IMG/VR virus record: IMGVR_UViG_3300048606_000068
Location: 1-61,421 of that record
Length of the DNA: 61,421 bases
DNA from: a virus
Lineage: Duplodnaviria > Caudoviricetes
Strand: one strand, 5' to 3'
The notes beneath the pieces were generated by a model. It made no database searches. It was not told the origin of the DNA and worked only from the letters and a program-made list of their open reading frames with translations. This document shows positions 12,348-61,421 of the stretch, in pieces. Position 1 is the first letter of the stretch. The number at the start of each line of letters is the position of its first letter. The position numbers were made by a program, and so were the translations under genes.

Positions 12348-12381
12348 TGCACCCATCCGACTCTTGATGAGAGGGCACACC

Positions 12382-16715: not shown

Positions 16716-16747
16716 TCGCCGAACACCTGACTGGATTGGTTGCGAAG

Positions 16748-18133
16748 ATGGCTCGTTGCGGCTGTGCATCCTCCTCCTGCGCCTGCCTGCTCGAAGGCGG
16801 CAACGGGATCACCATCACCGGCAACGGCAACTCCGGTTCGCCGTACGTCGCCGAGATCGACTGTGATGCCGTCGAAGCTTGCATCGGTGGTGGAGGTGGG
16901 GGCGAGGCGCTGTTGTCGCCGCGCTACGCACAGGGTGCCGTCGTCTTCACCTGGGATGATGGCTGGGACACGCATCCGAGCGTTGCCGACATGCATGCCG
17001 CGCGAGGCCAAAAAGCCACCTTCTATGTGACCACCAATCTGCTCGGCACTGCGCAACACATGACGGCCGGAGCGATCGCGCCGATGGTTGCGCAAGGCCA
17101 CGAGATCGGCGCGCACTCCGCCGACCACCTAGATATGACCACGCTGACACCGGTCACCCGCGCCCCGCAGTGGGCCTCCCAGCAGACCCTGGAGGGGATC
17201 ATCGGGGGCGGCTACCAGGTGCGCTCGTACGCGTACCCGTTCGGCACCCACAACCTGGCCACCGATCAGGAGTCGTACGGCCGGTTCGACCGGATCGCCT
17301 CGGTCGGCCTGTCGCAAGGATTTGCAGGCTCTTCGACGTCCGCTGGTCAATGGATGTACGAGCCGGGGAAGATCGAGAACTACCGTCACGGCCGGTTCCC
17401 CTGGAGCCAGACCACCCACGCTCAGTTCATGCGGATCCTGAAGGACTACGTACTCAAGCGTCCTGTGATCCTGACCGCGTACGCGCACCAGATCGGCAAC
17501 CCCGACACGCCCACCCTGATTCAGGTCACCGAAGCCATGGACTACTGCCAGGCCAACGGGATTCCGTGCCTGACCAGCGCGCAGGCATTCCCTGGCCCGA
17601 AGGTGGTCAATGCCGGATTCGAGAACAGCATCGATGGCTGGGTGGTCATCACGGCCGGAACTGGTGCGACCGGTCTGACCGTCGACAGCTTCACCGATGC
17701 GCCGTCGGCAGGGCTCCCCGGCACGAAGTCGCTTCGGGTCATTTCGCCGAACACCCCCACCACCAACGACACGGTGGAAGTCATGCAGACTTTCCCGGTG
17801 GACGGTGATCGGCCGTACACCTTCTCAGGACGAATCCGGCACGACCCGACCCCTGTTGGTGTGGGTGCGGGGGTCAAACTCCGTATCAACGAGATGGCTG
17901 CTGACGGCACTGTGATTTCGGGACGGGCCGTCAGCGGGGCAGCGTCCACAACCGCGTGGACTCAGGGCACTGTGACGCCAGCAGCACTGAATGACGGCCG
18001 GACCATCGCCGGACGCTCTCATCCTGAGGCGCGTTACTGGGAGGTCGGCGTCCGGATCAACAACGTGACCGGTACTTTCTACGCTGATCACCTGTACTTC
18101 GGCCCCACCGAAGCTGCCGGGGCCATCGGCTGA
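16748..18133 (+). CDS. Virion-associated polysaccharide deacetylase (NodB/CE4) with C-terminal carbohydrate-binding-like domain
   Basis: Cys-rich N-terminus MARCGCASSSCAC; VFTWDDG, GHEIGAHSADH, YAYPFG; NAGFE...GW...YADHLYFG jelly-roll pattern. Confidence 0.8.
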   Translation: MARCGCASSSCACLLEGGNGITITGNGNSGSPYVAEIDCDAVEACIGGGGGGEALLSPRYAQGAVVFTWDDGWDTHPSVADMHAARGQKATFYVTTNLLGTAQHMTAGAIAPMVAQGHEIGAHSADHLDMTTLTPVTRAPQWASQQTLEGIIGGGYQVRSYAYPFGTHNLATDQESYGRFDRIASVGLSQGFAGSSTSAGQWMYEPGKIENYRHGRFPWSQTTHAQFMRILKDYVLKRPVILTAYAHQIGNPDTPTLIQVTEAMDYCQANGIPCLTSAQAFPGPKVVNAGFENSIDGWVVITAGTGATGLTVDSFTDAPSAGLPGTKSLRVISPNTPTTNDTVEVMQTFPVDGDRPYTFSGRIRHDPTPVGVGAGVKLRINEMAADGTVISGRAVSGAASTTAWTQGTVTPAALNDGRTIAGRSHPEARYWEVGVRINNVTGTFYADHLYFGPTEAAGAIG

Positions 18134-22407: not shown

Positions 22408-25400
22408 GTGACCGCTGAGACAGTCGGCTCCGCACAGGTCACCATCGATGCCGATTTCTCGACGTTCGACGACCAGCTGAGAGCCGGGCTCACCGCAGCC
22501 GCCCGTCGGGCCGGTGGCGAAGCCGAGAAGATCCTGAAGCGCTCCGGTACCAACGCTGGCAAAGAGTTCTCCCAGGGTGTGGCCAAGGCCGCTGATTCCA
22601 CCAAGACAATCGATAAGATCCAGGCCAGTCTCGGTCGCCTGGAGGTGGCGGCCAAGCGTGCGGGTGATGCTCAACTCGACTCCGCTGCGCGTGTTCGTTC
22701 GGCGGAGGAGGCGCTGGCCAAGGTCAAGCGGACTACGTCCACGGTCACGCTCGACGGGGCTGCCAAGATCGTCGCGGCGGAGGAGCGGGTAGCCAAGGCG
22801 CATCGTGACGCGGCTCGATCCGGCAACCTGGCCCAGACCGCAGAGAACGCCCTGGCCGACGCCCGCGCCAAGCTCGCCAATGCGATGAACGGCGATGGTG
22901 TCGCCGACGACTTCGCTCAGCGCTTCGAGCGCAAGCTCAAGCCGGCCGTGGCCAAGGCGGGCAACGACTCCGGCGGTTTCTTCAGCCGGGCGTTCTCGAC
23001 CGCCGCATCCAAATCGATCGGCAAGGGGCTCTTCACAGGTCTGATCGCCAGTCTCGCCGGCTTGATCACGGCAGCGTCGCCGCTGTCGACTGTTCTGGGT
23101 GGCGGGACAGCGGCTGTGATCGCCCTGGCCGCTGCGCTCGGTCAGGCGTCCGGAGCCGCCCTTTCCCTGGGTGGGGTGCTCGGATCCCTCGGATTGGCTG
23201 CCATCGCCCTGAAGGTTGGTTTCTCGGGCGTAGGCGATGCTGTGAAGGCTCAGGCCGCAGCACAGGCGGAGCTGGTCAAGACCGGCACGATCAGCGCGGC
23301 CACTCAGAAGAAGCTCGACGAGTCGCTGAAGGGGCTCGCGCCGTCGGCCCGTTCCGTCGTGGTCGAGCTGGGGAAGATGACCCCGGCCTGGAACGCCGTC
23401 AAGCGGTCAGTCCAGCAGAACCTGTTCGCTGGGGTATCCACCGAGCTGGCCAACCTCGGGCAGCGCTTCCTTCCGATCTTGCGGCAGCAGCTCGGCACCA
23501 CGGCGACCACCCTTAACCAGGCGTTCGTCGGCCTCTCGAAGTTCCTGACCACGGGTGCCCGATCGAACCAGATCAGCGTGATCTTCACCGGGCTGAACGG
23601 CATCCTGAAGACCTTGCTATCCCCACTCAAGACCCTCGCCGGCGGATTCCTGGACATCTTCACAGCGTCACTTCCGTTCGCGCAGCAACTCGCCACCGTC
23701 CTGGCCAACGTCGGTACCCAGTTCGGCACCTGGCTCGGGAAGGTTGCCGACGGCGACGGCTTCCAGAAGTTCATGCAGACCGCCATGCAGACGGCGGGCA
23801 ACCTGTTCCAGCTGCTCGGCAACATCGGCTCGATCATCGGGTCTGTGTTCGCGGCCGGGTCGGCGACCGGCGGCAACCTGCTCCAGCTCTTGCGAGACAT
23901 TACCGGCCAGTTCGCGCTGTTCCTGAAGTCGTCTGAGGGCAAAGCCGCCCTGGCGTCATTCTTCGGCCTGGTCGCCCAAGCAGGTGGCGTGCTGGTCGGC
24001 GTGTTCAAGACCCTGTCCCCGCTGCTGTCCGGGATCGGCTCTCTGTTCCAGGCGCTCCAGGGGTCGCTTAAGGTCTTCGGTACCGCACTCACAGGCTCGA
24101 TTGGGCTGATCGCCACCACCCTGGGTGGGATCTTCGCTCAGCTCGGGCCGGTGATCGGGCAGCTGGTCGTTGCCCTGGCCCCCATCGTGACGATCCTCGG
24201 AGGCGTGCTCGCGGGTGCCCTTCAGGCGTTGGCTCCCGTGGTGATCGCCGTAGTGTCCGCCTTGGCTCAACTGCTCCCGGTCCTGACTCCGCTACTCGGA
24301 CTGCTCGGTACCGCGTTCATCGGGATCCTTCAGCAGCTGTCTGGCGCGCTGCTGTTGATCGTCCCGGTTCTGGCTCAGTTCATCGCAGCGATCCTGACCG
24401 GTCTTCAGCCGGTGATAGCTGCGCTCCTGCCTGTCTTCAGCCAACTGGTTACCGCCGCTCTGGGTCTCATACCGCCACTTCTTCAGATCCTGACTTCCAT
24501 GCTGCCGCTGGTACCCGTCGGCGCACAGCTCTCCCTAGCCTTCGCTCAGCTGATCGTTGCCCTGGCCCCCTTGGTCACTTCGATCCTAGGATCCCTGGCC
24601 TCGCTGCTGGTCCAGCTCGCCCCGGTCATCGCTGCTCTGGTGCCGATCATCGCCCGCGTGATTCAGATGTTCGTCGGCATGGTGCAAGGCGTGACCGGCG
24701 TAGTGACGGCCGTCGTTGGCTTCGCGGTGCGAGTGATCGCCAAATTCAACGAGGTGCGCGGGGCAGTGATCGCGGCTGTCAGCGCTCTGGTTTCCAGAGT
24801 CGTTGCCTTCTTCGCCGGCCTGCCCGGCAAGATCAACACCCTGATGATTCAGTTCGGGGACAAGGTTCGTGGCGGAATCGACAAAGTGGGCGCGTTCTTC
24901 CAGTCTCTGCCTGGCAAAATCACCGGCGTGCTTTCTGGCCTGGGTGGGCAGCTCGCACAGGCAGGTCGCAACGCCATGGACGGCCTGATCGGTGGACTCG
25001 AAGGCGCGTTGGGCCGGGTGCGGGAGGTCGCTGGCAACATCGCCAAGGCGATCACTGGTCCTGTGGCTAAGTTCCTGGACATGCACTCCCCGTCCCGCGT
25101 GCTGAAGAAGATGGGTAACGACGCGGTACAGGGCATCATCAACGGGATCAAGGAAAAGATCCCGGGCGTCTCTGCCGCGATGACGATCCTGGCCCGCGCC
25201 ATCCCGGCCAAGGTCGAGCCCGCAGTGAACAAGCTGAACACGGCACTCAATTCTCTGGGTAAGAATCTGCCATCCTCGATCCGGACCCGGCTCAACCAAG
25301 CTGTCGCCGTGGCGCGAGTCGGCATCGCCACGATCGGCCGTTCTCAGGACGTTCTGAACGCCAAACTGAAGACGGCGCAGGACAAGCTCACGAGCCTGCT

Positions 25401-26202
25401 CCAGAGCCAGCAGCAGCTAGCACAGAGCGTTGCCAGCAGCATCCTTCAGACTGGCAACATCGCTGCTGGCCAGGGCGTTCAGACGTTCAAGGGAATCGTC
25501 GATCAGCTCAAGGGTGCGGTCACCCAAGCGAAGGCATTCGGGACGACCATCGCGGCTCTCACGAAGGCCGGGCTGAACAAGACCTCGCTCCAGCAGATCA
25601 TCGACGCCGGCCCGGAGGCCGGGCTCGCAGCGGGCCAGGCAGTACTCAGCGCCGGCAAGGCCGGGGTCCGCCAGATCAACACTCTCCAGAGTCAGCTCCA
25701 GACGGCAGCGAACAAGGCCGCGACGACGGCCGCCAATGCGATCTTCGGCCAGGGCGTACAGATTGCACGCGGGATCGTGGCCGGGCTCCAGCGGCAGAAG
25801 AGTTCCCTGGACGCCCAGATGCTCCGACTGGCTGACGTGCTCGTAGCGCGCGTCCTGCGGGTGCTGCGCCAGGTCAAGCTGAAGGGCACCGGGACGCTCG
25901 ATATCCCGGGCTTCCGTCGGGGCGGCATCATCTCGCAGGACTCGCTGGTCCGCGCCGGTGAGGGCGGCAAGCGAGAGGCCATCGTCCCGCTGGAGCGCCC
26001 GCGTGACCGTGACCGGGTGATGCGGCAGTCCGGCCTGGATCAGGTGGCGGCCGGCAAGGGTAGCAAGACCCGAGAGGTTCACGTTCCGATCTACGCGCGG
26101 GAGGCGTCGGCGGCAGAGGTCGGCAAGATGGTCGAGGATATCCTGAAGCGATACGGCTTCAAGCCCGTGCTGGGGCTGCAAACTGCGGGAGGGGTCGTCT
26201 AG
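22408..26202 (+). CDS. Tape measure protein
   Basis: 1264 aa, Ala/Gly/Leu-rich helical repeats, MHSPSR, GEGGKREAIVPL. Confidence 0.95.
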   Translation: MTAETVGSAQVTIDADFSTFDDQLRAGLTAAARRAGGEAEKILKRSGTNAGKEFSQGVAKAADSTKTIDKIQASLGRLEVAAKRAGDAQLDSAARVRSAEEALAKVKRTTSTVTLDGAAKIVAAEERVAKAHRDAARSGNLAQTAENALADARAKLANAMNGDGVADDFAQRFERKLKPAVAKAGNDSGGFFSRAFSTAASKSIGKGLFTGLIASLAGLITAASPLSTVLGGGTAAVIALAAALGQASGAALSLGGVLGSLGLAAIALKVGFSGVGDAVKAQAAAQAELVKTGTISAATQKKLDESLKGLAPSARSVVVELGKMTPAWNAVKRSVQQNLFAGVSTELANLGQRFLPILRQQLGTTATTLNQAFVGLSKFLTTGARSNQISVIFTGLNGILKTLLSPLKTLAGGFLDIFTASLPFAQQLATVLANVGTQFGTWLGKVADGDGFQKFMQTAMQTAGNLFQLLGNIGSIIGSVFAAGSATGGNLLQLLRDITGQFALFLKSSEGKAALASFFGLVAQAGGVLVGVFKTLSPLLSGIGSLFQALQGSLKVFGTALTGSIGLIATTLGGIFAQLGPVIGQLVVALAPIVTILGGVLAGALQALAPVVIAVVSALAQLLPVLTPLLGLLGTAFIGILQQLSGALLLIVPVLAQFIAAILTGLQPVIAALLPVFSQLVTAALGLIPPLLQILTSMLPLVPVGAQLSLAFAQLIVALAPLVTSILGSLASLLVQLAPVIAALVPIIARVIQMFVGMVQGVTGVVTAVVGFAVRVIAKFNEVRGAVIAAVSALVSRVVAFFAGLPGKINTLMIQFGDKVRGGIDKVGAFFQSLPGKITGVLSGLGGQLAQAGRNAMDGLIGGLEGALGRVREVAGNIAKAITGPVAKFLDMHSPSRVLKKMGNDAVQGIINGIKEKIPGVSAAMTILARAIPAKVEPAVNKLNTALNSLGKNLPSSIRTRLNQAVAVARVGIATIGRSQDVLNAKLKTAQDKLTSLLQSQQQLAQSVASSILQTGNIAAGQGVQTFKGIVDQLKGAVTQAKAFGTTIAALTKAGLNKTSLQQIIDAGPEAGLAAGQAVLSAGKAGVRQINTLQSQLQTAANKAATTAANAIFGQGVQIARGIVAGLQRQKSSLDAQMLRLADVLVARVLRVLRQVKLKGTGTLDIPGFRRGGIISQDSLVRAGEGGKREAIVPLERPRDRDRVMRQSGLDQVAAGKGSKTREVHVPIYAREASAAEVGKMVEDILKRYGFKPVLGLQTAGGVV

Positions 26203-44082: not shown

Positions 44083-46365
44083 ATGACGAGTATGACAGAG
44101 ACTGATATGGCTGTCACACCGCTGTCCGAGGCGCAACGACATGCCCTGGAGGTGACGCGCGAGTTGATCAAGCGCGGCGCTCCGGTGTTCATCGCCAAGC
44201 CGGCGCTGGACGCTGACGGCGTGTGGGATCCGAAGGCGGGGATGGGCGGCTACCAGCTTCCCCTCCGCTGGCAGCGCACCAAGCCTGACCCCGGAGTGGT
44301 TGACGAATGGCAGCCCGGAGACGCGCTGTGCATGGTGACCGGAGTCGTGCTGGACCTCGTGGACATCGACACCCAGAAGGGTGGCTCGGCGGACGCGGTC
44401 CCCTTCTTCATGTCGCTGGGGTGTGCCAGTACGCCGAGCGGGGGAACTCACGAGTTCATCGCCCCGCTGCATGTCCGGTCCCTCGACGGCGTTGCGGCCG
44501 GCGTGGACGTCAAGTCCGGGCTGCCGGACGGCCACGGGCGTGGCTTCGCCTTCCTGGCCCCCACGGTCAAGGCGTCGAAGGTTACCGGCGAGCTGGCCGA
44601 GTACGTCTGGTGCGGCGAGCTGCACCTGGACGCGATCGACGGCCAGCCCGACCCGAGCAACGCCGAGCTGGCCGACCTGATCAACTCCCGTCGCGCGCTG
44701 GTCGTGACCTCGTACGACGGCCCCGGGTACGCCGAGCTGGACGAGGACCAGCGGGCCGAGGCCGATCTCTACGTGCTCGACCAGGTCACCTACTGGCGAT
44801 CCAAGCTGGCCGAGGCGGCGACCTGGGAGGACGGGGAGACCGATGACCGGTTCAGGGGCTGGGAGCGGCTGACCGCCGATTTCACCTGGTCATTGACATC
44901 GATGGTCGTGACGCCCTGGCTGAACCTGACCGAGGTCCGCGCAGAGCAGCTGTACGCCGAGGTCCTGCCGTCGGTGATGGCCGACGACCCGAAGTGCTCG
45001 GGCAAGTGGGCACCGACCCTGCGCAAGGCGATGCGCGAACCGTCCTACGATCCGCCACCCTGGGCTGTCGACGGCACCGACCCGGCCGGCGATCTCGGCT
45101 CGGGCATCGCGGGACTGTTCGACTCCAGCAAGCAGCTGAAGCACATCCAGGCCGCCGCGCACTCCCGGGGCGTGAGCGCCATGAACGTCATGGCCTGGAT
45201 GCTGGCGGAGATGCTGATGGGTACGCCGCACGACCTGTATCTGCCGCCCGTGGTCGGAGGACGGGCGAGCATGAATCTCGGGTTTGCACTGGTCGGCGAC
45301 TCTGGAGCGGGCAAGAGCGCGGCTCAGGCCGTCGCCCGGGACCTGATGCCTGAGGCGCTGTACCCCGACGACGACATTCAGCCGATCGGCACCGGTGAGG
45401 GTGTCGTGGACCAGTTCTGCGACTGGACCGACGTCGGCGACGAGAAACAGAAGCTCGTGCTGATGCCGGTCGCCGGCTCCGCGTGCGTCTTCACGGCCGA
45501 CGAGGGCGAGTCGTTCAAGCGCTTGGCTGAGGGGCGTAACGGCGCGACGCTCGGCGAGGTTATCCGGACCGGCCTCACCGGCGGCAAACTCGGCTTCACC
45601 AACACCAAGACCGGCGGCCGCAAACGGGTCGTCCCCGGCAACTCCTACCGCATGCTGATGATGATCAACATCCATCCGGATCAGGCCGACGTGCTACTGG
45701 CCGGTAACGGCGTCGGCACACCGCAGCGGTTCCTGTGGGTGCCGAGCAACGATCCGACCATGCCCGAGACGGTGGAGGAGCTGCCGGAGTGGCCCGGTCA
45801 GCTGCCGTGGTTCCCGCCCGAGGTCCCCGAGGGTGACATCCAGTACCCCGAGCACATCGCCTACGAGATCAAGGACCAGCGGCTGAAGCAGGCGCGCGGT
45901 GAGGGCGACCCCCGCAACGGGCACCGGATGCTGGTTCAGCTGAAGGTCGCCTACGCCCTGGCGATGCTGCACGGTCAGGCCGTGATCGACGATCAGTGGT
46001 GGGCTCTGGCCGGCCGGCTCCTGGACCTGTCGTTCCAGGTCCAGGACATGTGCTTCGAGCGGATGGGCAAAAACAAGCTGAAGGGTCGAGTCGCTCAGCT
46101 CGACGTTGAGCACACCGCAGCTGGCATGTCAGTCGAGGGTCGTATCCAGGAGGCCGCCCTGGCGGTCGTCAAGAAGCTCCAGGCCACCCCCGGGCAGCCA
46201 AAGACCTGGAGCGAGGCGCGACCGTCCTACAAGCGCCGTCAGGGCCTGGAGGCAGCCGAGATCGTAGACCTGGTGCGCCAGCAGATCGGGATTACGGTGC
46301 AGGAGGCAGTCGATCCGATCCGGGGCACTCAGCAATGGACTATGTGCTTCGATCCGACTGGGTGA
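44083..46365 (+). CDS. Bifunctional primase-polymerase/helicase replication protein
   Basis: LDLVDIDT, STPSGGTHEF, FLAPT (prim-pol); GDSGAGKS Walker A, FTADEG Walker B. Confidence 0.85.
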   Translation: MTSMTETDMAVTPLSEAQRHALEVTRELIKRGAPVFIAKPALDADGVWDPKAGMGGYQLPLRWQRTKPDPGVVDEWQPGDALCMVTGVVLDLVDIDTQKGGSADAVPFFMSLGCASTPSGGTHEFIAPLHVRSLDGVAAGVDVKSGLPDGHGRGFAFLAPTVKASKVTGELAEYVWCGELHLDAIDGQPDPSNAELADLINSRRALVVTSYDGPGYAELDEDQRAEADLYVLDQVTYWRSKLAEAATWEDGETDDRFRGWERLTADFTWSLTSMVVTPWLNLTEVRAEQLYAEVLPSVMADDPKCSGKWAPTLRKAMREPSYDPPPWAVDGTDPAGDLGSGIAGLFDSSKQLKHIQAAAHSRGVSAMNVMAWMLAEMLMGTPHDLYLPPVVGGRASMNLGFALVGDSGAGKSAAQAVARDLMPEALYPDDDIQPIGTGEGVVDQFCDWTDVGDEKQKLVLMPVAGSACVFTADEGESFKRLAEGRNGATLGEVIRTGLTGGKLGFTNTKTGGRKRVVPGNSYRMLMMINIHPDQADVLLAGNGVGTPQRFLWVPSNDPTMPETVEELPEWPGQLPWFPPEVPEGDIQYPEHIAYEIKDQRLKQARGEGDPRNGHRMLVQLKVAYALAMLHGQAVIDDQWWALAGRLLDLSFQVQDMCFERMGKNKLKGRVAQLDVEHTAAGMSVEGRIQEAALAVVKKLQATPGQPKTWSEARPSYKRRQGLEAAEIVDLVRQQIGITVQEAVDPIRGTQQWTMCFDPTG

Positions 46366-46385
46366 GGCTCGGCTGGTACCTGTCT

Positions 46386-46639
46386 GGTCTCGTTAGGTAC
46401 GACAGGTACGGCGTACCTAACGGGGAAAAATTGAAAACAGTAAATTTAAGTAAGTTTAAGTAAAATATAAGCATAGAGTTACAGAAGTAACTTAAAGTAG
46501 TTAAAATCATGCATTCCCGCGAGTCCTGTTATTCACAGCCTGTGGATAACTCCATTTTCAAATGGTCCCCGTTAGGTACGTACCTCTCGTACCTAACGGT
46601 TGAGCGTGAAATGGCTCTGGCCCGTACCTAACGGGGACC
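46386..46639. other. Origin-like element B (candidate replication origin with DnaA boxes)
   Basis: Directly after prim-pol; AT-rich core; CGTTAGGTACG/CGTACCTAACG iterons; TTATTCACA 46529-37 and TGTGGATAA 46541-49. Confidence 0.78.
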
Positions 46640-46665
46640 GCGTGGCTCGGTGGTACAGTGAAGGC

Positions 46666-46887
46666 ATGCCGACAGAGAACGTGGAACCGCAGATCGACTG
46701 GGAGAGCCGGGCCGACGGAGAGCCTCACCTCCTGCTGCTGGACACCCACTACAGCCGCGACGTGCGCCTGGTCCGGCGGGCGGCCGGCATGTGGGCTCTG
46801 CGCCACGGGTTCCGCTGCCTGACCGACATCAGTGCCGACCCGAGCGGACTGATCGTGAGATTCCTACCGAAGACCGGAAAGGTGTGA
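46666..46887 (+). CDS. Hypothetical protein
   Basis: 73 aa. Confidence 0.65.
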   Translation: MPTENVEPQIDWESRADGEPHLLLLDTHYSRDVRLVRRAAGMWALRHGFRCLTDISADPSGLIVRFLPKTGKV

Positions 46888-46890
46888 CAG

Positions 46891-47070
46891 ATGAGTGCAA
46901 CGGAGGGACTCCTCCTGGAAGACCCGGAGGGTTCCAAGATCATGCTGACCCGGATCGATGATGCGGTGTTCACCGTCGCGGCCGAGCTGGCTCCCGGAGC
47001 TGTCGCGTTCCGGATGTTCGAAGAGAACCGCGCCAAGCTGCGCAGCTTCCTCAAGACCCTGGACGGCTGA
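46891..47070 (+). CDS. Hypothetical protein (59 aa, not in ORF track)
   Basis: MSATEGLLLEDPEGSKIML...; GAAAGG RBS. Confidence 0.7.
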   Translation: MSATEGLLLEDPEGSKIMLTRIDDAVFTVAAELAPGAVAFRMFEENRAKLRSFLKTLDG

Positions 47071-50432: not shown

Positions 50433-50590
50433 ACGGCCGGGAGATCGTCTCCGAGATGATGCGTACCCGCATGTACCCGGAACTGATCCTGGAGCTGGAA
50501 CTACGCTTGATGGCTGAAGCTGAGTCCAGCGAACCTCCGATCTGGATCCCGATGCACAGCGGCATGTGGCTGGTGGAGTGCAAGACGTGA
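50429..50590 (+). CDS. Hypothetical protein
   Basis: Coupled ORF. Confidence 0.55.
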   Translation: MNGREIVSEMMRTRMYPELILELELRLMAEAESSEPPIWIPMHSGMWLVECKT

Positions 50591-52194
50591 GTCTCGATCT
50601 CGCGCTGCCGGCGGACTGGCGTTGCTGGGACGAGTCCAGCAAAGAGCGTCTGTTGGCCCGGCTGCGCGCAGAGCTGATCATCCAGCAGAAGCAGCAGACC
50701 TTCTGCACCGACCGCACGCCGTCCGATCTGGCCGCACGTCTGCTCGGCGACCGCTGGCACCACCGCAGCTATCACGATGTGCTCGACCAGCTGGCCCTGG
50801 ATCTCGACGCCCGCGTGATCGACATGGCCACGCTGAGCATGCCGCCGCAGACCGGGAAGTCCAGCTGGGTCAACTGGTTCGTGTTCTGGTGGAACGCCCG
50901 CCACCCCGAAGAGCCGATCATCCGGATGAGCTACGCCGCCGAGCTGGCTGTGAGTCACGCGCACGTCGTGCAGCAATATATCGAGCAGTACGGCGGCGAG
51001 TTCGGATTGCTGCCAGAGAAGGGCTCCTGGGCTCAGCACAACTGGAAGACCAAGACCGGCGCAGCCCTGCGCTCCGGTGGCATGATCACCGGCGTCTCCG
51101 GCTATCCGGCCGTCCTGATGCTGCTCGACGATCCGCTGGCCGGCCGTGCACAGGCAGACAGCAAGCTCATTCGGGACAACGTCTGGAAGGAATACTCAGG
51201 CTCTCTCGTGAGCCGTACGCGGCCGGGCGGAGTCACGCTGATGGTAGCGACCCGATGGCACGAGGACGACCCGATCGGCCGCCTGATCAAGCTGCACGGT
51301 GACGAGGCCAAGGGCGGCCGGGTGCGCGTCATCAACCTGCCCGCGATCGCCGGTGAGGATGACGTCTTGGGCCGGGCCGTCGGCGAGCCGCTGCCTCACC
51401 CCTGGATCGCTGAGGGCGACAAAGCAGCTGCCCTGGCGCACTGGGAGGACAAGCGCCGATCCAGCACACAACGCGACTGGTTCAGCCTGTACCAGGGCGA
51501 CCCGAAGCCGATCGAGGGCGCGTTGCTGACTGAGGAGCAGGTTGCGGCCGCCACATGGCGCGAGCAGGAGCTGCCGGAGTTCGTCAAGACCGTCGTGTCG
51601 ATCGACCCGTCTGGTGGTGGCCGTGACGTGGCCGGCATCATCGGCGCGGGGCTGATGGAGGACGGCCGGCTGATCTGGACCCACGATCGGTCAGCTCAGA
51701 TGGGCTCGGACGAGTGGACCCACGCTGCCTGTGTTCTCGCCCATGAGATCGACGCGAACGAGATCGTCTATGAGAAAAACTACGGCGGCGATACGGCGAA
51801 GTTCCTGCTGCGCTCGGTGTGGAACAGCCTGTCTGAGGAGGCCATAGAGAACGGTGAAGAGGAGTGGGGTCCGTGCCCGCGAATCGTCATGGTCAACGCG
51901 AAGAAAGGCAAGCGGGTAAGGGCTGAGCCGATCTCGGTACAGGTTGCCCTGGGCAAGGTTCTCTTCTGGGGTCTCTTCGTGCTGAACCTGAGCAGCGAGT
52001 GGACGACTTGGCAAGAGGACAGCAAAGAATCTCCCGGCCGGATCGACGCATCGTGCTATGCCGCTTACCGCTGCCTGAAGATCCCGGGTGCTGACAGTGT
52101 CGTGTCGACGGGAACGGCGGAGACGCCGAAGCAGGGCACCGGTAAGAGTGCCCTGGCTTCGAAGCGGGTCGTACGACCATCCGCCGGCCGCTAG
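50587..52194 (+). CDS. terL: Terminase large subunit
   Basis: MPPQTGKS Walker A, LLDDP Walker B, TRWHEDD, SIDPS, EKNYGG, SPGRIDA. Confidence 0.93.
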   Translation: MSLDLALPADWRCWDESSKERLLARLRAELIIQQKQQTFCTDRTPSDLAARLLGDRWHHRSYHDVLDQLALDLDARVIDMATLSMPPQTGKSSWVNWFVFWWNARHPEEPIIRMSYAAELAVSHAHVVQQYIEQYGGEFGLLPEKGSWAQHNWKTKTGAALRSGGMITGVSGYPAVLMLLDDPLAGRAQADSKLIRDNVWKEYSGSLVSRTRPGGVTLMVATRWHEDDPIGRLIKLHGDEAKGGRVRVINLPAIAGEDDVLGRAVGEPLPHPWIAEGDKAAALAHWEDKRRSSTQRDWFSLYQGDPKPIEGALLTEEQVAAATWREQELPEFVKTVVSIDPSGGGRDVAGIIGAGLMEDGRLIWTHDRSAQMGSDEWTHAACVLAHEIDANEIVYEKNYGGDTAKFLLRSVWNSLSEEAIENGEEEWGPCPRIVMVNAKKGKRVRAEPISVQVALGKVLFWGLFVLNLSSEWTTWQEDSKESPGRIDASCYAAYRCLKIPGADSVVSTGTAETPKQGTGKSALASKRVVRPSAGR

Positions 52195-55185: not shown

Positions 55186-55439
55186 TCGCCCTGGCAGTAC
55201 TGCGCGGATTCTTCTCCGCCATCGGTCAGTTCCTGGGGCCACTGCTGGCCCGCAGGCACGGACGCCACGGTCATCGCTGTCACTGCAAGAGCAAGCCCAA
55301 CGCGGCCTACCCCGGTGATCAGTGGCGCTGCCCGCAGTGCGCACAGATCTACGTGGCTGAGATCTACAGCGGTCGCGTGTGCTGGCTGGTCCGCCTGTAT
55401 GCCCCCACTTACAAGCTCCCTGAAAGGCGGTCCTCGTGA
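55182..55439 (+). CDS. Hypothetical Zn-ribbon protein
   Basis: HRCHC...WRCPQC. Confidence 0.6.
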   Translation: MIALAVLRGFFSAIGQFLGPLLARRHGRHGHRCHCKSKPNAAYPGDQWRCPQCAQIYVAEIYSGRVCWLVRLYAPTYKLPERRSS

Positions 55440-56293
55440 TGACCCCCAAGTCCGGCCGTGTTATCGCGTGGCTGTCGTTTCTGCTGGGGATCGGCGTCTC
55501 GATCGCGGGCAACGTCGGCCACGCGGCCAGCGACGGCATGAAGCCGGGCGAGTGGGCCGGCGCTGCCTTCTGGCCGCTCGCGCTCATGCTCACGATCGAG
55601 ATCCTGACCCGGGTCAACTGGCAGCCTGGCAAGCGCTGGACTGCTGCCCGTATCGCCGGCCTGATCCTCGTCGCAGCCGTCGCCGCGATCCTGTCGTACC
55701 GGCACCTGGCCGGGCTGATGACCTACTGGGGCGAGGACTGGGCCAACGCCCACCTCGGTCCGCTCGCCGTGGACGGCCTGATGCTGGTCGCCGCGACGGC
55801 GCTGTTGTCGATCAGCCACGAGAGCAAGCTGCCGATCGAGTGGCAGGGCACGCCCGAGGAGATCAGCGCGAAGGCGTTCGAGCGTGGCGCGCATGCCGAG
55901 CGAGTAGGAGCGGAAGCCCTGGCGGAGTTCAAAGAGAACCTTCCCGCACCCGGCAGCCTTCCCTGGGATGACCCGAAGGCTGATCCGGTGGCGGACCTTC
56001 AGGCAGCCAAAGAGCGGTACGCACAGACGTACGACGTTCATCCGGGAGCAGTTGCCGTTGACGTGCCGGAAGCTCTCCAGCAGTTCGCCGAGCCGAAGCC
56101 CGAACCGCAGAAGCTTCACATCGTGAACAGGGTCTCCGCGTCGGTCTCCGAGGAAGCAGCACTCCAGGCCTGGATCGACTCCGGCCGGACCATGTCCTCC
56201 AGCCAGGTAGCCGAAATGATCGGTACCTCGAAGTCGACGGCGCACCGGCGTATGAAGACCTGGCCCTCCGAGGGAAGGCGTATCCAGCGATGA
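55436..56293 (+). CDS. DUF2637/SpdA-like membrane protein with C-terminal HTH
   Basis: Four TM helices, SIAGNVGHA, AAILSYRHL, GPLAVDGLM; C-terminal SSSQVAEMIGTSKSTAHRR. Confidence 0.8.
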   Translation: MMTPKSGRVIAWLSFLLGIGVSIAGNVGHAASDGMKPGEWAGAAFWPLALMLTIEILTRVNWQPGKRWTAARIAGLILVAAVAAILSYRHLAGLMTYWGEDWANAHLGPLAVDGLMLVAATALLSISHESKLPIEWQGTPEEISAKAFERGAHAERVGAEALAEFKENLPAPGSLPWDDPKADPVADLQAAKERYAQTYDVHPGAVAVDVPEALQQFAEPKPEPQKLHIVNRVSASVSEEAALQAWIDSGRTMSSSQVAEMIGTSKSTAHRRMKTWPSEGRRIQR

Positions 56294-57975
56294 GCGAACT
56301 GGAAGCGAAGCCCGACAAGCCGCCCAAGCCGGGCATGTCGCTGCGGTCGGTGGCAACGATCACAGGTGCTGTCGTCGGCACGGCCGGTGCCGTGACACTG
56401 CTGGCCGTCGGTGGCTGGATCGCTGTTGCCGGAGGCACCGTTGCCGTTGTCGGAGCGGGCTACACGCGGCACCGTATGAAGAACCCGCGTCGGCCGTCCG
56501 GTCGCCGCTCGACGAACGGAGGGAAGCTCTCATGGCCGTTGACGGGAAACCAGAGCCGCCGAGGACTCTTGGGCAGTGGCTCGAATTCATCCGGTGGGCG
56601 AGGGCGCGGCCGGACTGGTTCCCCGGCAAGCACGCGCTCTCGATCCGCTGGCCGAAAGAGTGGGAAGGGACTCGCGGACCGAGCTGGATCCCTCTTGCCC
56701 AAGACCACCCGTTCAAGGGCCAGAGCTGGTGCTGGAGGTGTCTTGCCGAAGCACAAGGCGTCGAGGGGATTGCCGTCCCGCACGACTCCGAAGGCGGGGC
56801 GATCTGCTGGGGTGGCGGCCAAGCCGCGCCGTCTGCCGAAGACCCCGACCCGGACACCGGCCAAGCCCGGCTCAGCATCACGGCTGATGGCAGGCAAGTC
56901 GTCAGCGCATCGGAAGCCTGGATCACCAAGCTCGACCCGGAAGGGCAGCCGATCCCCGGCACGCGGGAAAGGCTCTTCCCTCCTGCCGAAGGCGTCGACA
57001 CGGGGACGATCTTCTACACGCCGCCCCTCCAGTCGGGGTCAATCGGGGGGTGGGTTGGCGCGACGGTTGACCTCCCCGAAGAAATCCGGCTCTGGACGGC
57101 GCAGCCTGAACCCCCTGAAGCGGACCAGCCCGAGCGGTTTGCACTCGCGTACCCGCAATCCTCTGAAGCGGACCACCGCGACACCTGGCCGCCGTCATGG
57201 ACGGACGACGAGGAGAGCACGCCGGCTGGGGACTCCAGGGCTGAACCGGACGGCGAACCGCAGCCCTAGCCGGTCGGTTCGCCGTCCGAAGACGTTCAAG
57301 CGGACCCGTGCCCGCAAGCTGTTCCGTCTGGCCGTCGGCCTGCCGGTACGGAAGGGCTCGACGTTCAAGCGGCCGAGCCTGGCTCAACGGCGGAAAGCTC
57401 GGCGGACTCTATGGCTCAGAGGTATAACCCGGACGTTATGGCTTCGCAAGCTGCCAGGCATCTACAGCCGCTGGCACTGGGATCGAATTCAGGCTCGGAT
57501 CCCCCAGACCCCTAACCCGGCTTGGCGGCAGACCACGATTCCTCTGCCGAAAGTCAAGACAGAACCTGGACCGCGCCACGCGATTCCGGCCACATCAGCA
57601 ACGTCATCCCCAACCACCACGGAGGTACCGAAGATGTCCGCAGATCCTCACGGCGTGATCGCCGAAGCGTTCAACCAGCTCGCGCAGTTCCAGCCGGGAT
57701 CGGCTAGCGAGATGGAGCGCTACCTGGCCATGCAGCACGAGCTGTTCACCAACATCGGGATGGCCTACACGGTGCTGGCCGACCGGATGAGTTCGGACAT
57801 GCCGTTCGGGCCGGCCGTCGCCGACAGCACCCGCGATCTCGGAGCGGCCTTCAGCAGCCTGTCCGGCCTGGCGCAGGACGTACACGCCACCTTCCGGCAG
57901 GAGCACGAAGCCGAGCTGGCCCGGATCGAGGCTCCGCGCCCGAACGAACAGATCTGGGACACGAACGCGCAATGA
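56290..57975 (+). CDS. Membrane-anchored Arg/Ser/Gly-rich protein with helical C-terminal domain (plasmid transfer-associated, TraA-like)
   Basis: N-terminal TM hairpin, long basic low-complexity region, 113-aa C-terminal domain with its own GGAGG-ATG at 57634. Confidence 0.6.
   Translation: MSELEAKPDKPPKPGMSLRSVATITGAVVGTAGAVTLLAVGGWIAVAGGTVAVVGAGYTRHRMKNPRRPSGRRSTNGGKLSWPLTGNQSRRGLLGSGSNSSGGRGRGRTGSPASTRSRSAGRKSGKGLADRAGSLLPKTTRSRARAGAGGVLPKHKASRGLPSRTTPKAGRSAGVAAKPRRLPKTPTRTPAKPGSASRLMAGKSSAHRKPGSPSSTRKGSRSPARGKGSSLLPKASTRGRSSTRRPSSRGQSGGGLARRLTSPKKSGSGRRSLNPLKRTSPSGLHSRTRNPLKRTTATPGRRHGRTTRRARRLGTPGLNRTANRSPSRSVRRPKTFKRTRARKLFRLAVGLPVRKGSTFKRPSLAQRRKARRTLWLRGITRTLWLRKLPGIYSRWHWDRIQARIPQTPNPAWRQTTIPLPKVKTEPGPRHAIPATSATSSPTTTEVPKMSADPHGVIAEAFNQLAQFQPGSASEMERYLAMQHELFTNIGMAYTVLADRMSSDMPFGPAVADSTRDLGAAFSSLSGLAQDVHATFRQEHEAELARIEAPRPNEQIWDTNAQ
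56532..57269 (+). CDS. Overprinted ORF nested in an alternative frame
   Basis: GGAGGG RBS, 245 aa, GC-rich third positions, globular-looking middle. Confidence 0.45.
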   Translation: MAVDGKPEPPRTLGQWLEFIRWARARPDWFPGKHALSIRWPKEWEGTRGPSWIPLAQDHPFKGQSWCWRCLAEAQGVEGIAVPHDSEGGAICWGGGQAAPSAEDPDPDTGQARLSITADGRQVVSASEAWITKLDPEGQPIPGTRERLFPPAEGVDTGTIFYTPPLQSGSIGGWVGATVDLPEEIRLWTAQPEPPEADQPERFALAYPQSSEADHRDTWPPSWTDDEESTPAGDSRAEPDGEPQP

Positions 57976-58187
57976 TCGGACTGCTGAAGTTCACAGAGCG
58001 GCGGGGCACCCTTCAGTCGCATTCCAGCACGGAAGTATGGGTCAACCCCGAAGCGATCGACTGCCTTCGGGTCATCTCGACCGGAACGGTCATGATCTTG
58101 CGATCAGGGCAGTCGCTGTACCTCAGCGAAACAACTGATGAGATCGTCGCCGCGCTTCAGCTCATCGGCCGGCCGGTCGATTCATGA
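57972..58187 (+). CDS. FlbD-like small protein
   Basis: VWVNPEAI...T...LRSG....LSETTDEIV. Confidence 0.6.
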   Translation: MIGLLKFTERRGTLQSHSSTEVWVNPEAIDCLRVISTGTVMILRSGQSLYLSETTDEIVAALQLIGRPVDS

Positions 58188-58408
58188 TCTCGATCCACCG
58201 CGTACAGAAGGATCTCCGCCCGATCGTCGAAGAGGCGATCGGGCGGGGGTGCTGGGAGCTGGAGAAGCTGAAGCGCGGCAGCCACACCTTCAGGCTCAGG
58301 CACTCATCTGGCCGGATCGTCCCTCTTGCGTCGTCCAGGGTGAGTGAGGCCATGGCTTCGAAGAAACTCAGGTCCCAGCTCCGGAGGATCGAGCGGGAAG
58401 CGAATTAA
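58184..58408 (+). CDS. HicA-like toxin
   Basis: GCWELEKLKRGSHTFRLRHSSGRIVPL; 74 aa, basic. Confidence 0.65.
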   Translation: MISIHRVQKDLRPIVEEAIGRGCWELEKLKRGSHTFRLRHSSGRIVPLASSRVSEAMASKKLRSQLRRIEREAN

Positions 58409-58423
58409 GTAGCCTAGCTACTG

Positions 58424-58462
58424 AAAGCCCCGGCACCCGCGTCTCTGGTGCTGGGGCTTTTT
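58424..58462 (+). terminator. Intrinsic terminator
   Basis: AAAGCCCCGGCACC/GGTGCTGGGGCTTT followed by T run. Confidence 0.8.
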
Positions 58463-58523
58463 GCTGAGCTGCAATATAAGTCACGGCTTTCATAAGCCAG
58501 TGGTTATGTGGGACACTTGTGGT

Positions 58524-59162
58524 ATGCCAGCTACCAAGGGAAAGCCGAGAGGCTATAGCGAAGTCCGGGAGTACATCGAGCATGCGGTGCGGACTCGTGA
58601 CGCCAGCGTGTGCTGGCTCGATTGGCCTTTCAAAGCTCAGTACTCCGAAGGTCGGCCCGGTGTCGGTGTCAAAGGCCGGAAGATCGGCGCAGTGCACTAC
58701 GCATACAGCCTGATTCACGATGAACCGAGCGGACAGCTCAACCACTCCTGTAACAAGGCAGGTTGCTGGAATCCAACGCACGTCTACGACGGAAACCAGA
58801 AGCAGAACACGGCGGACATGGTTCAAGCGGGAACGGGGAGCAACGGAACGGCGACCAAGCTCACAGCTGAGCAAGTCGTAGTCATTCGAGAGCGATACGC
58901 CGATGGGGAGAGTTCAGTCTCGATCGCGTCCGATTTTGGTATCACAGCCAGCAATATCAGTGCTGTTGTTCGGGGCAAAAGCTGGAATAAAGGTGACCAT
59001 CAGCCAGTACAAAAGCGCACTGGAGGTCCAGCGCGGATCGATCCGGAAGTTGTCCGAAAGATACGAGACGCGCATGCCGAGGGCTTCTCAGGAAGAAAAA
59101 TCGCGCGGGCCTTTTCCGTGAGTGAATCGACAGTCAGCCGTATCGTGCGAGGGGTGATGTGA
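58524..59162 (+). CDS. HNH homing endonuclease with two HTH domains
   Basis: CWLDW, NHSCNK..CWNPTHV..GNQKQN..DM, KLTAEQV, two HTHs; lower GC. Confidence 0.85.
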   Translation: MPATKGKPRGYSEVREYIEHAVRTRDASVCWLDWPFKAQYSEGRPGVGVKGRKIGAVHYAYSLIHDEPSGQLNHSCNKAGCWNPTHVYDGNQKQNTADMVQAGTGSNGTATKLTAEQVVVIRERYADGESSVSIASDFGITASNISAVVRGKSWNKGDHQPVQKRTGGPARIDPEVVRKIRDAHAEGFSGRKIARAFSVSESTVSRIVRGVM

Positions 59163-59163
59163 G

Positions 59164-61242
59164 ATGACAAGACGCAAGCAACCCGCCTCGTTCCTAGACG
59201 AGGAGTTCCAGCACTGGCACGTACTCGGGCCGATCCTGTGGGTCGCCCTGGTGTACGCCGCTGCCATCGTGCTGCACCTCCTGGGAGACGCCGTACCCGC
59301 GCGGTACGTCGGGGCCGTCGGCGGCTGCGCTTCGGTCCTCGCACCGCTGGTGGCGATCTACAAGCGATTCAGCTTCCTGCTCATGGCGGGTACCACCGGC
59401 TTACTTACTTACGTCACGGCGACCAGCCCCTGGCATCGCGGCCCGGCCCTCGCAGCTGCGGCCGGCGCGATCATCTTCGGGATGAGTTACCAGGCGCTGC
59501 GCAAGCGCGAGGCGAAGGAAGCCGACACGGACAAGGCAGCTGAGAAGGCGGCCAGCAGGGGCCGGTACGTCGAACTGCTGGAGCAGATCGGGGCCAAGGG
59601 CCTGAAGGAAAAGACCCGCGTACCGTTCGCCGCCGGCAAGACGATCATCTTGCTGCTGCCGGTCAACGGCTCCCTCACGCTGCGCCGGCTGAAGGACCTC
59701 ACGGAGCAGCTGGAGATCGCGGCCGCCCGCGCCGGCCTGGAAGTTACCTTCGAGTTCGAGAAGGGAGCCACGGCCGCCGAGGTGAAGCTCCATGTCTTCG
59801 AGCGGGACATTCTCGCGGAGACTCTGCCGCTGGAGTTTGACCGGGGGCCGAAGAGCGTCAACGAGCCGATTCCGCTCGGGCAGTACGCCACGGGGGAGAT
59901 CTGCACGATCACGTTCCGGGAGATCGCCGCGCTGATGGTCGGCCTGAAGGGTAAGGGCAAGTCGGGTCTGATCAACACTCACCTGGCACACCTGACCGGG
60001 TGCACGGACGCCGTTGTCTGGATGCTCGACGGCAAGGGCGGGGAGACGGTCCGGCCCTGGCTCCAGCCGTTCCTGGACCTGGTCACTGAGCGCCCCGTGA
60101 TCGACTGGGCTGCGGTGACCGAAGCGGAGTTCGACGCTGTGCTGCTGGCGGCAAACGCTGTCCGGAAGTACCGCTCGAAGCTGCCGGGCAAGACCGGGCC
60201 GACGGCCGCCATGCCGTCGGTGATCGTGATCGTCGAGGAAGCGTCAGTGATCACCGGCGTCGGGCGCTACGGCGGATCGAACCGCGTCCAGCTGGCGCAG
60301 GACGGCGTGACGCTTGGCCGGTCGAGCTACCTCGATTGGCTGTTCGCGACCCAGCGCGCCGTGCTGGACATGGTCGGCAGCGGATCGATGAAGGCCAATC
60401 TGGATGCCCGGTTCGGCCTGGGTGTCAGCGATGCCATGGACGCCCGCTCGATCTTCCCGGATGGCCAGATGGCTCAGGGGCTGTTCAAGCTGGCCGATGA
60501 CAACAAGTACCGAGGCACGTTCCTCATGCAGGCTCCGGGCTCGTCCCGCGTCATGCCGGCGAAGGGTTACTGGGTCGAGCCGAAGACCATCCCAGGGATC
60601 GCTGAGACGAATGCCCGCTGGACCGCCGAGCTGGATCGGGGAACGGCTGAGTTCGTTCATACCGCCCTGCTGGACGCCGGCGTCCCAGGTGGATATCAGG
60701 GTCGGTGGAAGCGGTTCAGTGACACGCTAGGAATCGAGACGCCTCAGGGCGTGTCATCCGTCCCAGCGTCCCAGCCCGAGACGCGTCCCAGTGACACGGC
60801 TGAGACGTCTCAGTACGACGGCTCGAAGGGACGCCAGGTGGTCCAGGACGCGATCGCGGCGGGACGTGCCAAGCGGGACGATGACACGTTCCAGCAGTTG
60901 GTCGACGCGAACTTTGAGACGGTCGAGCTGGGAGACGATGACACGCGGCTACGGGACGTCTCGTCGATTCCCGAGGGCGTCCCACCGATCCTGCGGTACA
61001 TGCTCACGATCTTCCGGGCGCACGGTCAGCCCGATGACCTACCGTCTCAGGTCATCGTCAACGATCTGCCGGGCAAGATCACGGTGCACGCTCTGGGCCG
61101 GCTCATGGGTCACTGCAACGTCTCACCAGGGCAGAACATCGTCTGGGAGGGCAAGCGCGCCCGGGGGTACACGAGAGACGCCGTTGAGACGGCTGTGAAG
61201 CGGGGCTCGTGGTCCGGTCCGGCGTTCGACTGGGAGCCGTGA
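59164..61242 (+). CDS. traB: TraB/FtsK-SpoIIIE family DNA translocase
   Basis: N-terminal TM helices, GLKGKGKS Walker A, LDGKGG, VIVEE Walker B, ATQR, C-terminal winged-helix-like ALGRLM...RGYTR. Confidence 0.8.
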   Translation: MTRRKQPASFLDEEFQHWHVLGPILWVALVYAAAIVLHLLGDAVPARYVGAVGGCASVLAPLVAIYKRFSFLLMAGTTGLLTYVTATSPWHRGPALAAAAGAIIFGMSYQALRKREAKEADTDKAAEKAASRGRYVELLEQIGAKGLKEKTRVPFAAGKTIILLLPVNGSLTLRRLKDLTEQLEIAAARAGLEVTFEFEKGATAAEVKLHVFERDILAETLPLEFDRGPKSVNEPIPLGQYATGEICTITFREIAALMVGLKGKGKSGLINTHLAHLTGCTDAVVWMLDGKGGETVRPWLQPFLDLVTERPVIDWAAVTEAEFDAVLLAANAVRKYRSKLPGKTGPTAAMPSVIVIVEEASVITGVGRYGGSNRVQLAQDGVTLGRSSYLDWLFATQRAVLDMVGSGSMKANLDARFGLGVSDAMDARSIFPDGQMAQGLFKLADDNKYRGTFLMQAPGSSRVMPAKGYWVEPKTIPGIAETNARWTAELDRGTAEFVHTALLDAGVPGGYQGRWKRFSDTLGIETPQGVSSVPASQPETRPSDTAETSQYDGSKGRQVVQDAIAAGRAKRDDDTFQQLVDANFETVELGDDDTRLRDVSSIPEGVPPILRYMLTIFRAHGQPDDLPSQVIVNDLPGKITVHALGRLMGHCNVSPGQNIVWEGKRARGYTRDAVETAVKRGSWSGPAFDWEP

Positions 61243-61414
61243 GACGTACCAACAGCGAGACGCCCCGTGCCACTGGCACGGGGCGTCTCTCGTTTCACAT
61301 GATTCTTGTCAGACCACCGTCTCAAGGGTGATTCGGATCTTTGCGCCATCGGGGTGAAGCGCTGCGATCCGGTCCACTTCTTCTGAGACGTCCACAGTGT
61401 TGGTGGACGTCTCA
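60603..61414. repeat. Dense cluster of YGRSACG heptamers (clt/TRS-like), continuing at 244-313
   Basis: About 28 copies of TGAGACG/TGGGACG/TGACACG/CGAGACG/CGGGACG in both orientations here, plus 5 at 244-313. Confidence 0.8.
61257..61289 (+). terminator. Palindromic hairpin after traB
   Basis: GAGACGCCCCGTGCCA-c-TGGCACGGGGCGTCTC. Confidence 0.7.
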
Positions 61415-61421
61415 GAAGAAG
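61263..61421. repeat. Terminal direct repeat, copy 2
   Basis: Matches 1-159 with one mismatch. Confidence 0.95.

Follow-up and report, generated by a model that had tools for sequence, protein, structure and literature searches.

What function could be served by a seven-base word that is written again and again, in both orientations, into the 3′ end of one viral gene and the DNA behind it? The question is raised by a stretch of 61,421 nucleotides (nt), hereafter the window, which is the entire IMG/VR virus record IMGVR_UViG_3300048606_000068 (Duplodnaviria; Caudoviricetes). Near its right end lies a gene for a translocase resembling TraB, the protein that moves plasmids in mycelial actinomycetes, and the array of words surrounds the stop codon of that gene. 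An earlier sequence-only reading, made without database searches, had noticed 33 copies of YGRSACG there and across the junction of a presumed circle; it took them for a clt, the type of locus that TraB recognises, with a new specificity and overprinted on coding DNA. We lean towards a related answer, namely that the array is a putative clt-like cis site for the phage's own TraB/FtsK-type translocase, written in the codons of its linker. The features concerned are as follows.

59164 to 61242, plus strand: gene for a TraB/FtsK-like double-stranded DNA (dsDNA) translocase of 692 amino acids (aa), Walker A motif GLKGKGKS
60603 to 61246, both orientations: coding part of the array, about 26 YGRSACG sites
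60720 to 60812, no strand assigned: dense core of the array, with 10 sites over 93 bp at a spacing of 5–15 bp, terminating in the palindrome CTGAGACGTCTCAG
61257 to 61289, no strand assigned: inverted repeat with perfect 16-nt arms, 15 nt past the stop codon, with GAGACG/CGTCTC at the outer ends of the arms
61370 to 61421, continuing into 160 to 166, with a full copy at 108 to 166, no strand assigned: long palindrome with 26-nt arms and a 7-nt loop, one TGAGACG per arm
244 to 314, no strand assigned: downstream part of the array, five sites at 244, 252, 257, 298 and 307
375 to 460, no strand assigned: second repeat set, three to four copies of AGCGTGT(A/T)G and a palindrome

A strand-neutral scan recovers all 33 of the earlier YGRSACG positions and adds 60542, 60865, 61266 and 61274; further matches at 4, 12, 56 and 146 belong to the second copy of a 159-bp terminal overlap. 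The window contains 147 such words in total. Counted in 500-bp bins, the last two hold 22 and 10 and the first holds 9, against at most 5 in every remaining bin, which bears out the local enrichment claimed before. On the non-redundant circle this amounts to about 36 words in 1,162 bp versus 106 in about 60.1 kb, so that words are roughly 18 times as dense in the ~1.2 kb at the junction as in the remaining 60 kb. Relative to the stop codon, the array extends 639 bp upstream and 327 bp downstream. A sharper form of the word is TGRSACG, as T precedes the core in 66% of the sites in the cluster versus 11% elsewhere. Between 750 bp before and 600 bp after the stop codon TGRSACG occurs 27 times, versus 21 times between 400 and 60500; its main variants, inside the cluster versus elsewhere, are TGAGACG (12 versus 3), TGACACG (6 versus 2) and TGGGACG (6 versus 9). 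A motif-blind scan for the commonest 6-mer in 600-bp windows ranks the array region first as well, with 14 copies of CGTCTC, the next best count anywhere being 9.

The coding stretch 60600–61242 was compared with codon nulls of 5000 shuffles each, a comparison fixed beforehand as the test of the enrichment, and in every case 0/5000 shuffles reached the observed number. With synonymous codons shuffled, 24 YGRSACG are observed versus 7.1±2.1 (maximum 15), and 18 TGRSACG versus 1.4±1.2 (maximum 7). The 24 YGRSACG likewise compare with 5.2±2.0 under phage-wide codon usage and with 2.5±1.5 when the order of codons is shuffled. The array is under selection at the level of DNA, since its copies also occur in non-coding sequence and stand in both orientations, encoding different peptides. 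Tandem duplication was considered as an origin and rejected, because Tandem Repeats Finder reports only CGTCCCAG ×2.1 within the array.

The way the words are fitted into the gene is regular. All 8 forward TGRSACG copies lie in a single reading frame; the forward copies read GAG-ACG (Glu-Thr) or GAC-ACG (Asp-Thr) after a codon ending in T, and the reverse copies encode Ser-Gln, Val-Pro and others. The dense core codes for the peptide SDTLGIETPQGVSSVPASQPETRPSDTAETSQ and coincides with residues 531–556 (nt 60754–60831), a low-confidence segment of the protein model. The array is indeed overprinted on coding DNA at and after the 3′ end of the gene, as the site positions and the codon nulls show, and it is indeed densest in the linker, where the predicted local distance difference test (pLDDT) score is below 50, upstream of a winged helix at residues 608–688.

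Past the stop codon, the word recurs in two self-complementary elements. The inverted repeat at 61257–61289 would fold as RNA at −34.6 kcal/mol (z −5.5) and looks like a terminator for the TraB-like gene. Only 15 nt of its right arm recur, at 14–27; a consensus promoter and terminator scan of bases 1–700, which excluded 61257–61289 and its left arm, returned nothing. The long palindrome folds at −49.5 kcal/mol (z −8.3), and its copy at 108–133 has A in place of C at 127. The five downstream sites overlap the 3′ end of a possible minus-strand open reading frame (ORF) for a basic protein of 38 aa (248–364). Between this small ORF and the hairpin that follows gene 514–1011 lies the second repeat set; 5 of the 9 ACACGCT copies of the window fall in this 375–460 region. 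A metagenomic relative, locus L009, has an analogue directly after its own traB-like gene, with AACACGTGT ×4 and AACCCGTGTA ×2 at its positions 5170–5330, and in both places the second repeat family looks like an operator region for the next gene.

The elements just described straddle the ends of the record. Bases 1–159 are identical to 61263–61421 except at one position, A at 127 versus C at 61389, and this 159-bp end overlap is the sole basis on which a circle is proposed. Independent Logan contigs, which come from two runs on one soil sample and do not make read starts visible, end within the long palindrome (~120–185), give C at 127 and leave 157–185 unbridged; no RNA run was listed as containing the sequence. 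The differing base sits in the left arm of the long palindrome, where A abolishes one TGAGACG; as the contigs give C, either an error of assembly or a minor variant may account for the A.

The replicon itself is not a plasmid, a context different from that of the sequence-only reading. PHROG matches identify a portal protein (6241–8172), a major head protein (12313–14247), a tape measure protein (22408–26202) and a large terminase (50566–52194), together with a major tail protein, a head-tail adaptor and a minor tail protein; the replication genes comprise a DNA polymerase, two helicases, an exonuclease, a single-strand annealing protein and a primase/polymerase. Neither an integrase nor a plasmid Rep was found in PHROG scans of all 16 ORFs of at least 300 aa. 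Judged by this set of portal, capsid, tape measure, polymerase and terminase genes, the window is a complete or near-complete tailed phage, and a plasmid identity is excluded. Its capsid protein is ~35–45% identical to those of Microbacterium, Gordonia and Mycobacterium phages.

The 692-aa protein is a distant relative of the known translocases. Its best PHROG match is phrog_31069, FtsK/SpoIIIE-like (E 3.7e-27); among NCBIfam models, plasmid_TraB (NF041214) comes first with E 1.2e-10, at 40.5 bits versus a cut-off of 800, followed by FtsK (E 1.3e-3). No Pfam family matches it at E ≤0.01, FtsK_SpoIIIE included. Because neither curated model is passed, we call the protein TraB-like only and assign it to no family. 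A full-length model built from a 26-sequence alignment (pLDDT 78) places membrane helices at residues 18–39, 46–63, 67–86 and 92–115, followed by an α/β motor, the low-confidence segment, a long helix and a C-terminal domain. Foldseek matches the motor to FtsK (2IUT, 6T8B) and TcpA (6O1W) with E 6e-13 to 4e-12 over ~390–410 columns, and a profile search against the sequences of the PDB yields 2IUS (E 6e-5). Modelled alone from 49 sequences, the last 102 aa reach a pLDDT of 89.9 and adopt the order H1-strand-H2-H3-β-hairpin-H4 of a winged helix. As modelled, the protein has the architecture of TraB: a membrane anchor, an FtsK-type motor, a disordered linker and a winged helix. The name traB given to the gene by the sequence-only reading holds for this architecture, motor and C-terminal domain; as a family assignment it does not hold and is an analogy.

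We then asked how the array fares in relatives. The TraB-like protein has 63 homologue clusters at 37–75% identity. Counting its own, there are 64 clusters, of which at least 13 lie on contigs of 55–85 kb; by this size the gene is assigned to a phage lineage. Homologue linkers bear odd peptide repeats that are specific to each clade. Close relatives are missing from IMG/VR, in both single-protein and alignment scans, and from 185,579 species genomes; in the phage collection the junction DNA has no match, and the closest match to the TraB-like protein covers 30% of it at 32.5% identity. The DNA of relatives therein discussed comes from 15 metagenome loci. Seven of these (L007–L013) hold the 3′ end of a full relative, L012 ending 33 bp past the stop codon; L017, L018, L020 and L021 lack a 3′ end and were excluded from motif counts. 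L011 and L013 are identical over the C-terminal 260 aa and were counted as one. Motifs were compared across the loci by explicit word counts.

L009, 44% identity to the window: 15 TGAGACG over the final 722 bp of the gene
L007, L008 and L010, 46–52% identity: 29–37 YGRRACR words (CGGAACG, CGAAACG, TGGAACA, TGGGACA) between 750 bp before and 600 bp after the stop codon
L011 and L013, 32% identity: in place of the array, 6 of 6 CACGGAT copies within 200 bp past the stop codon and none inside the gene, the six forming two direct pairs and one palindrome

A motif-blind test addressed the top 6-mer in the last 702 nt of each of six genes, against 1000 synonymous shuffles. It is significant in 5/6 genes, the window and L007–L010, and not in L011.

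Window: top 6-mer 12 versus a null mean of 5.7, 0/1000
L009: 17 versus a null mean of 7.1, 0/1000
L010: 10 versus a null mean of 5.5, 0/1000
L007: 9, 2/1000
L008: 8, 4/1000
L011: not significant, 737/1000

Aligned on the frame YG-NN-AC-R, the words differ in their central pair: AG (20) in L009; AG (16), GG (11) and AC (6) in the window; GA (12–15), GG (8–10) and AA (5–8) in L007, L008 and L010. The same shift is visible at a conserved Val/Ile-Glu-Thr in the last helix, encoded with GAG ACG in the window and with the rarer synonymous GAA ACG in L007, L008 and L010. The synonymous choice of GAG or GAA matches each clade's own word. Downstream genes differ among the array-bearing loci and the array stays with the translocase gene, in five independent metagenomic relatives; the only conserved neighbour of that gene is a homologue of a 561-aa protein encoded upstream. 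No array is present in L014–L016, which are distant and have an unrelated C-terminal domain, nor in L019.

That upstream protein and two other neighbours enter the argument below.

56290 to 57975, plus strand: partner gene, 561 aa, two N-terminal membrane helices by hydropathy
58461 to 59162, plus strand: HNH/helix-turn-helix (HTH) protein, 233 aa, matching Pfam HTH_38 and several PHROG HNH endonuclease families
55436 to 56293, plus strand: DUF2637 membrane protein with a C-terminal HTH (Pfam DUF2637, E 9.4e-7; HTH_IclR, E 9e-4), three hydrophobic segments by hydropathy

In the partner, a very basic, Ser/Arg/Lys/Pro-rich low-complexity stretch of ~350 aa precedes a conserved C-terminal domain; it has no match in Pfam, PHROG or NCBIfam. 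Its homologue lies directly upstream of the traB-like gene in eight loci (L007, L009, L011, L012, L014–L017), and the protein may be a DNA-binding partner of the pump. Only in this phage are the two genes separated, by the HNH/HTH gene and two small ORFs (57972–58408). For this reason 57972–59162 is probably an inserted cassette resembling a homing endonuclease; the HNH/HTH protein has no match in the relatives' loci.

Known systems provide precedents for several traits of the array. TraB binds 8-bp clt repeats via its C terminus (PMC4447253); for pSVH1, hexameric TraB reads 8-bp words that recur, using helix 3 in its C-terminal winged helix (PMC4447253, PMC4170104). Like the phage protein, pSVH1 TraB has a membrane part, an FtsK motor and a winged helix, but its clt and TraB recognition sequences (TRS) are few, direct and carried by a plasmid. 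The closest parallel is the clt of pWTY27, a locus bound by TraA that takes in 16 bp of traA and 159 bp beyond and contains TGACACC four times alongside inverted repeats (PMC3583192). As in the phage, these are 7-bp repeats accompanied by inverted repeats, TGACACC being one letter off the phage's TGACACG; the locus overlaps the end of the tra gene, by its last 16 bp, and extends behind it; and the Tra protein is membrane-anchored, FtsK-like and of similar size (688 aa). The pWTY27 locus, however, belongs to a conjugative theta plasmid and has four core repeats in 175 bp, whereas the phage has ~35 copies over ~1.2 kb, mostly coding; and binding and the requirement in cis were demonstrated for pWTY27 and are putative for the phage array. 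The mixed orientation, which had been called atypical of a clt, is in fact usual, as the loci of pIJ101, pJV1 and pWTY27 all mix direct and inverted repeats (PMC3583192). Position beside a tra gene is not universal, since the pIJ101 clt lies near korB.

Measured against these loci, the array is a cluster of short (5–9 bp) direct and inverted repeats, with both orientations and two word-bearing palindromes, and it overlaps a tra-like gene, with the same placement in L007–L010 and a position directly downstream in L011 and L013. Carriage by a conjugative plasmid or by an actinomycete integrative and conjugative element (AICE) does not apply to a replicon that encodes portal, major head, tape measure, tail and terminase proteins. 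Of the earlier interpretation, a clt-like role is retained as the best available reading, while a plasmid context is not, and the claim of a new specificity is not supported. Contrary to the known clt loci, the element would stand on a virus, is about ten times larger and lies in coding DNA.

Other relatives of the system offer partial parallels. The FtsK-orienting polar sequences (KOPS) of FtsK and the SpoIIIE recognition sequences (SRS), whose sequences are quoted in PMC8190038, are short like the phage words (6–8 bp) and act as loading sites, the known ones being read by a C-terminal winged helix. They are distributed chromosome-wide with strand polarity, unlike the phage words: a single 1.35-kb stretch holds 27 of the phage's 48 non-redundant TGRSACG, in mixed orientation. 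SpdA2 of pIJ101 binds a palindrome (sps) inside its own gene (PMC4170104), and so gives an instance, next to traB on an actinomycete mobile element, of a recognition site within the coding region of the binding protein; sps is, however, one conserved palindrome affecting plasmid stability, and SpdA2 is small and no translocase. In phages, the texts cited here list FtsK/SpoIIIE-like genes of actinophages, without a function or a cis site (PMC11536984, PMC13587820, PMC10117723). SpdB2 homologues occur in phages phiC31 and VWB (PMC4447253), so that kin of the actinomycete DNA-transfer and segregation machinery are borne by phages, like the gene described here; in Bacillus phages an FtsK-γ domain is fused to the small terminase (PMC8190038). 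We found no report of a phage-borne TraB-like gene with a cognate repeat array, in a literature search that covered neither supplements nor the primary TraB/TRS paper.

In the mechanism that we propose, the C-terminal winged helices of the pump, presumably a hexamer, would recognise the 7-bp TGRSACG. The many copies that crowd the 3′ end of the gene and the DNA just behind it would recruit the pump and assemble it on the phage genome. From there the pump would carry phage DNA, as a duplex, through a membrane or septum, much as plasmids are moved by TraB in mycelial actinomycetes. A disordered linker would tolerate the codon pairs for Glu-Thr, Asp-Thr, Ser-Gln and Val-Pro, so that sites can be written into coding DNA; the array could be overprinted in this stretch because it encodes such a linker. 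A clt-like site is the most economical account of the selection on the array, its linkage to the gene, the drift of its word from clade to clade, the winged helix and the clt precedent taken together. A bolder proposal, rather doubtful at present, is that of a lineage of tailed, apparently non-integrating actinophages with a full plasmid-style transfer module, made of the pump, the basic membrane partner and a giant clt, which would push naked dsDNA through septa or between hyphae without virions.

Several observations weigh against a clt-like role. The scale of the array, ~35 sites over ~1.2 kb, is far above that of known clt loci (4–9 repeats, 50–175 bp), and the element that carries it is a phage, which is not known to need conjugation. 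The winged helix finds generic structural matches only (PadR, MarR, Rex; Foldseek E ≥0.15, VIA Z ≤5.8), and FtsK γ is not among the weak matches listed for it. Its recognition helix, VHALGRLMGH, and its wing, GKRARGY, are nearly unchanged across clades whose words differ; in the six sequences compared, no residue of the winged helix tracks the word preference. L009 is no closer to the window than L007, yet it uses the same word as the window. It also carries seven more TGAGACG 517–995 bp downstream, and the next ORF contains at least five of these, which would not be expected of a site tied strictly to traB. Finally, the closest relatives in culture, at 27% identity, are circular replicons of Streptomyces that measure 90 kb and carry a terminase; one of them has no array at the 3′ end of its gene.

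A locus from one such Streptomyces replicon (L022, NZ_CP108469.1, 72033–83775) shows a related arrangement. The replicon is a 90-kb circular 'plasmid', and its terminase gene stands 3 kb from the TraB-like gene, a proximity by which it is probably a phage-plasmid. At positions 2068–2573 of the locus, a membrane protein with a C-terminal HTH-like tail is encoded, and 9 of the 13 GGCTCAC/GTGAGCC copies in the locus fall in the 3′ half of this gene. This GTGAGCC array parallels that of the phage, but in another gene.

The first alternative is that the array serves another DNA-binding protein of the phage, as repressor operators or a centromere-like site, the end of traB being merely tolerant of the words; the reader could be the DUF2637-HTH protein, the HNH/HTH protein, the basic product of ORF 248–364 or some other factor. 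Certain centromere and operator systems of plasmids, such as that of the omega protein of pSM19035, typically contain heptads arrayed in mixed orientation. With two long palindromes and a second repeat family nearby, the junction resembles a regulatory hub; the six copies of L011 are intergenic and upstream of the next gene, as operators would be, and those further copies in the gene that follows in L009 would fit this reading too. The Streptomyces array inside the gene of an HTH-tailed membrane protein adds that other HTH membrane proteins may do likewise. But scans of ~40 of the 74 predicted ORFs revealed nothing resembling ParA or ParB, and homologues of the DUF2637-HTH and HNH/HTH proteins are missing from relatives' loci that keep the array. 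The sole protein always linked to it is the translocase, with its upstream partner. The sequence-only reading had named the DUF2637-HTH protein as a possible reader, and this candidate is weakened: L009 keeps its TGAGACG array with no DUF2637 homologue within 3 kb upstream of the traB-like gene, and the motif-blind 6-mer scan finds no array in the DUF2637-HTH gene itself. Altogether, we regard a reader other than the translocase as unlikely.

It is less likely still that the array is a genome-processing site, that is, a packaging (pac) region, repeats flanking a short direct terminal repeat, or an in-gene origin with iterons. The assembly begins and ends here with a 159-bp repeat, and long palindromes adjoin the array. 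In T7, a 160-bp terminal repeat is flanked by arrays of 7-bp repeats, and the iterons of the lambda origin lie within the linker-coding part of gene O. Against this, 8.4 kb separate the array from the large terminase gene upstream and 15–27 kb separate it from the genes for polymerase, helicase and primase; the cumulative GC skew has its minimum near 43–44 kb, with no sign of an origin at the junction. The capsid is closest to those of the Mycobacterium, Gordonia and Microbacterium phage groups, which are known for circularly permuted genomes. De Bruijn contigs break at the palindrome, which explains the ends of the assembly without real termini; and in relatives the array stays with the translocase gene while its surroundings change.

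Selection on the protein for a linker rich in Glu-Thr, Asp-Thr and Ser-Gln, for instance for phosphorylation or flexibility and with the DNA words as a by-product, could draw on the composition of the last third of the protein compared with what precedes it (ET 6 versus 2, DT 4 versus 1, SQ 3 versus 0) and on the odd linker repeats of homologues, but it is disfavoured to the point of being very improbable, as 0/5000 shuffles with the peptide held fixed reach the observed count, reverse-strand copies encode unrelated peptides, ~10 copies are non-coding or in another gene, and the synonymous switch from GAG to GAA tracks the word of the clade.

Other features of the window are given for completeness. 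A C5-cytosine DNA methyltransferase gene (2204–3229; Pfam DNA_methylase, E 8.5e-32) lies ~2 kb from the array, and outside the array GAGACG/CGTCTC is neither avoided nor enriched (42 copies in ~60 kb). A second local word, AGGTACG/CGTACCT, occurs 19 times: seven copies fall in 600 bp just 3′ of the primase/polymerase gene (46101–46900) and five more around 3.2–4.2 kb (3201–4200), and it may be a repeated promoter or regulator site. A 475-aa protein (16706–18133) has a weak polysaccharide-deacetylase-like region (NCBIfam E 1e-8, far under the cut-off); together with a YdjM-family membrane protein (4488–4988; Pfam E 1.5e-23), it is unusual cargo for a phage.

The array offers a clear case of candidate protein-binding sites packed densely into codons for a disordered linker, where the choice among synonymous codons follows the word of the site. 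As a conserved and clade-specific cis element, it turns an annotation into a testable system made up of a single domain, a 7-bp word and a core of 93 bp. Were the array to be the loading site of the pump, this virus would have its own origin of transfer of the conjugation type, with a bearing on the spread of phages in mycelial bacteria and on the line that divides phages from plasmids. Should the complete transfer module exist as well, it would give a virus a second, conjugation-like route of transmission, within a multicellular host or between hosts.

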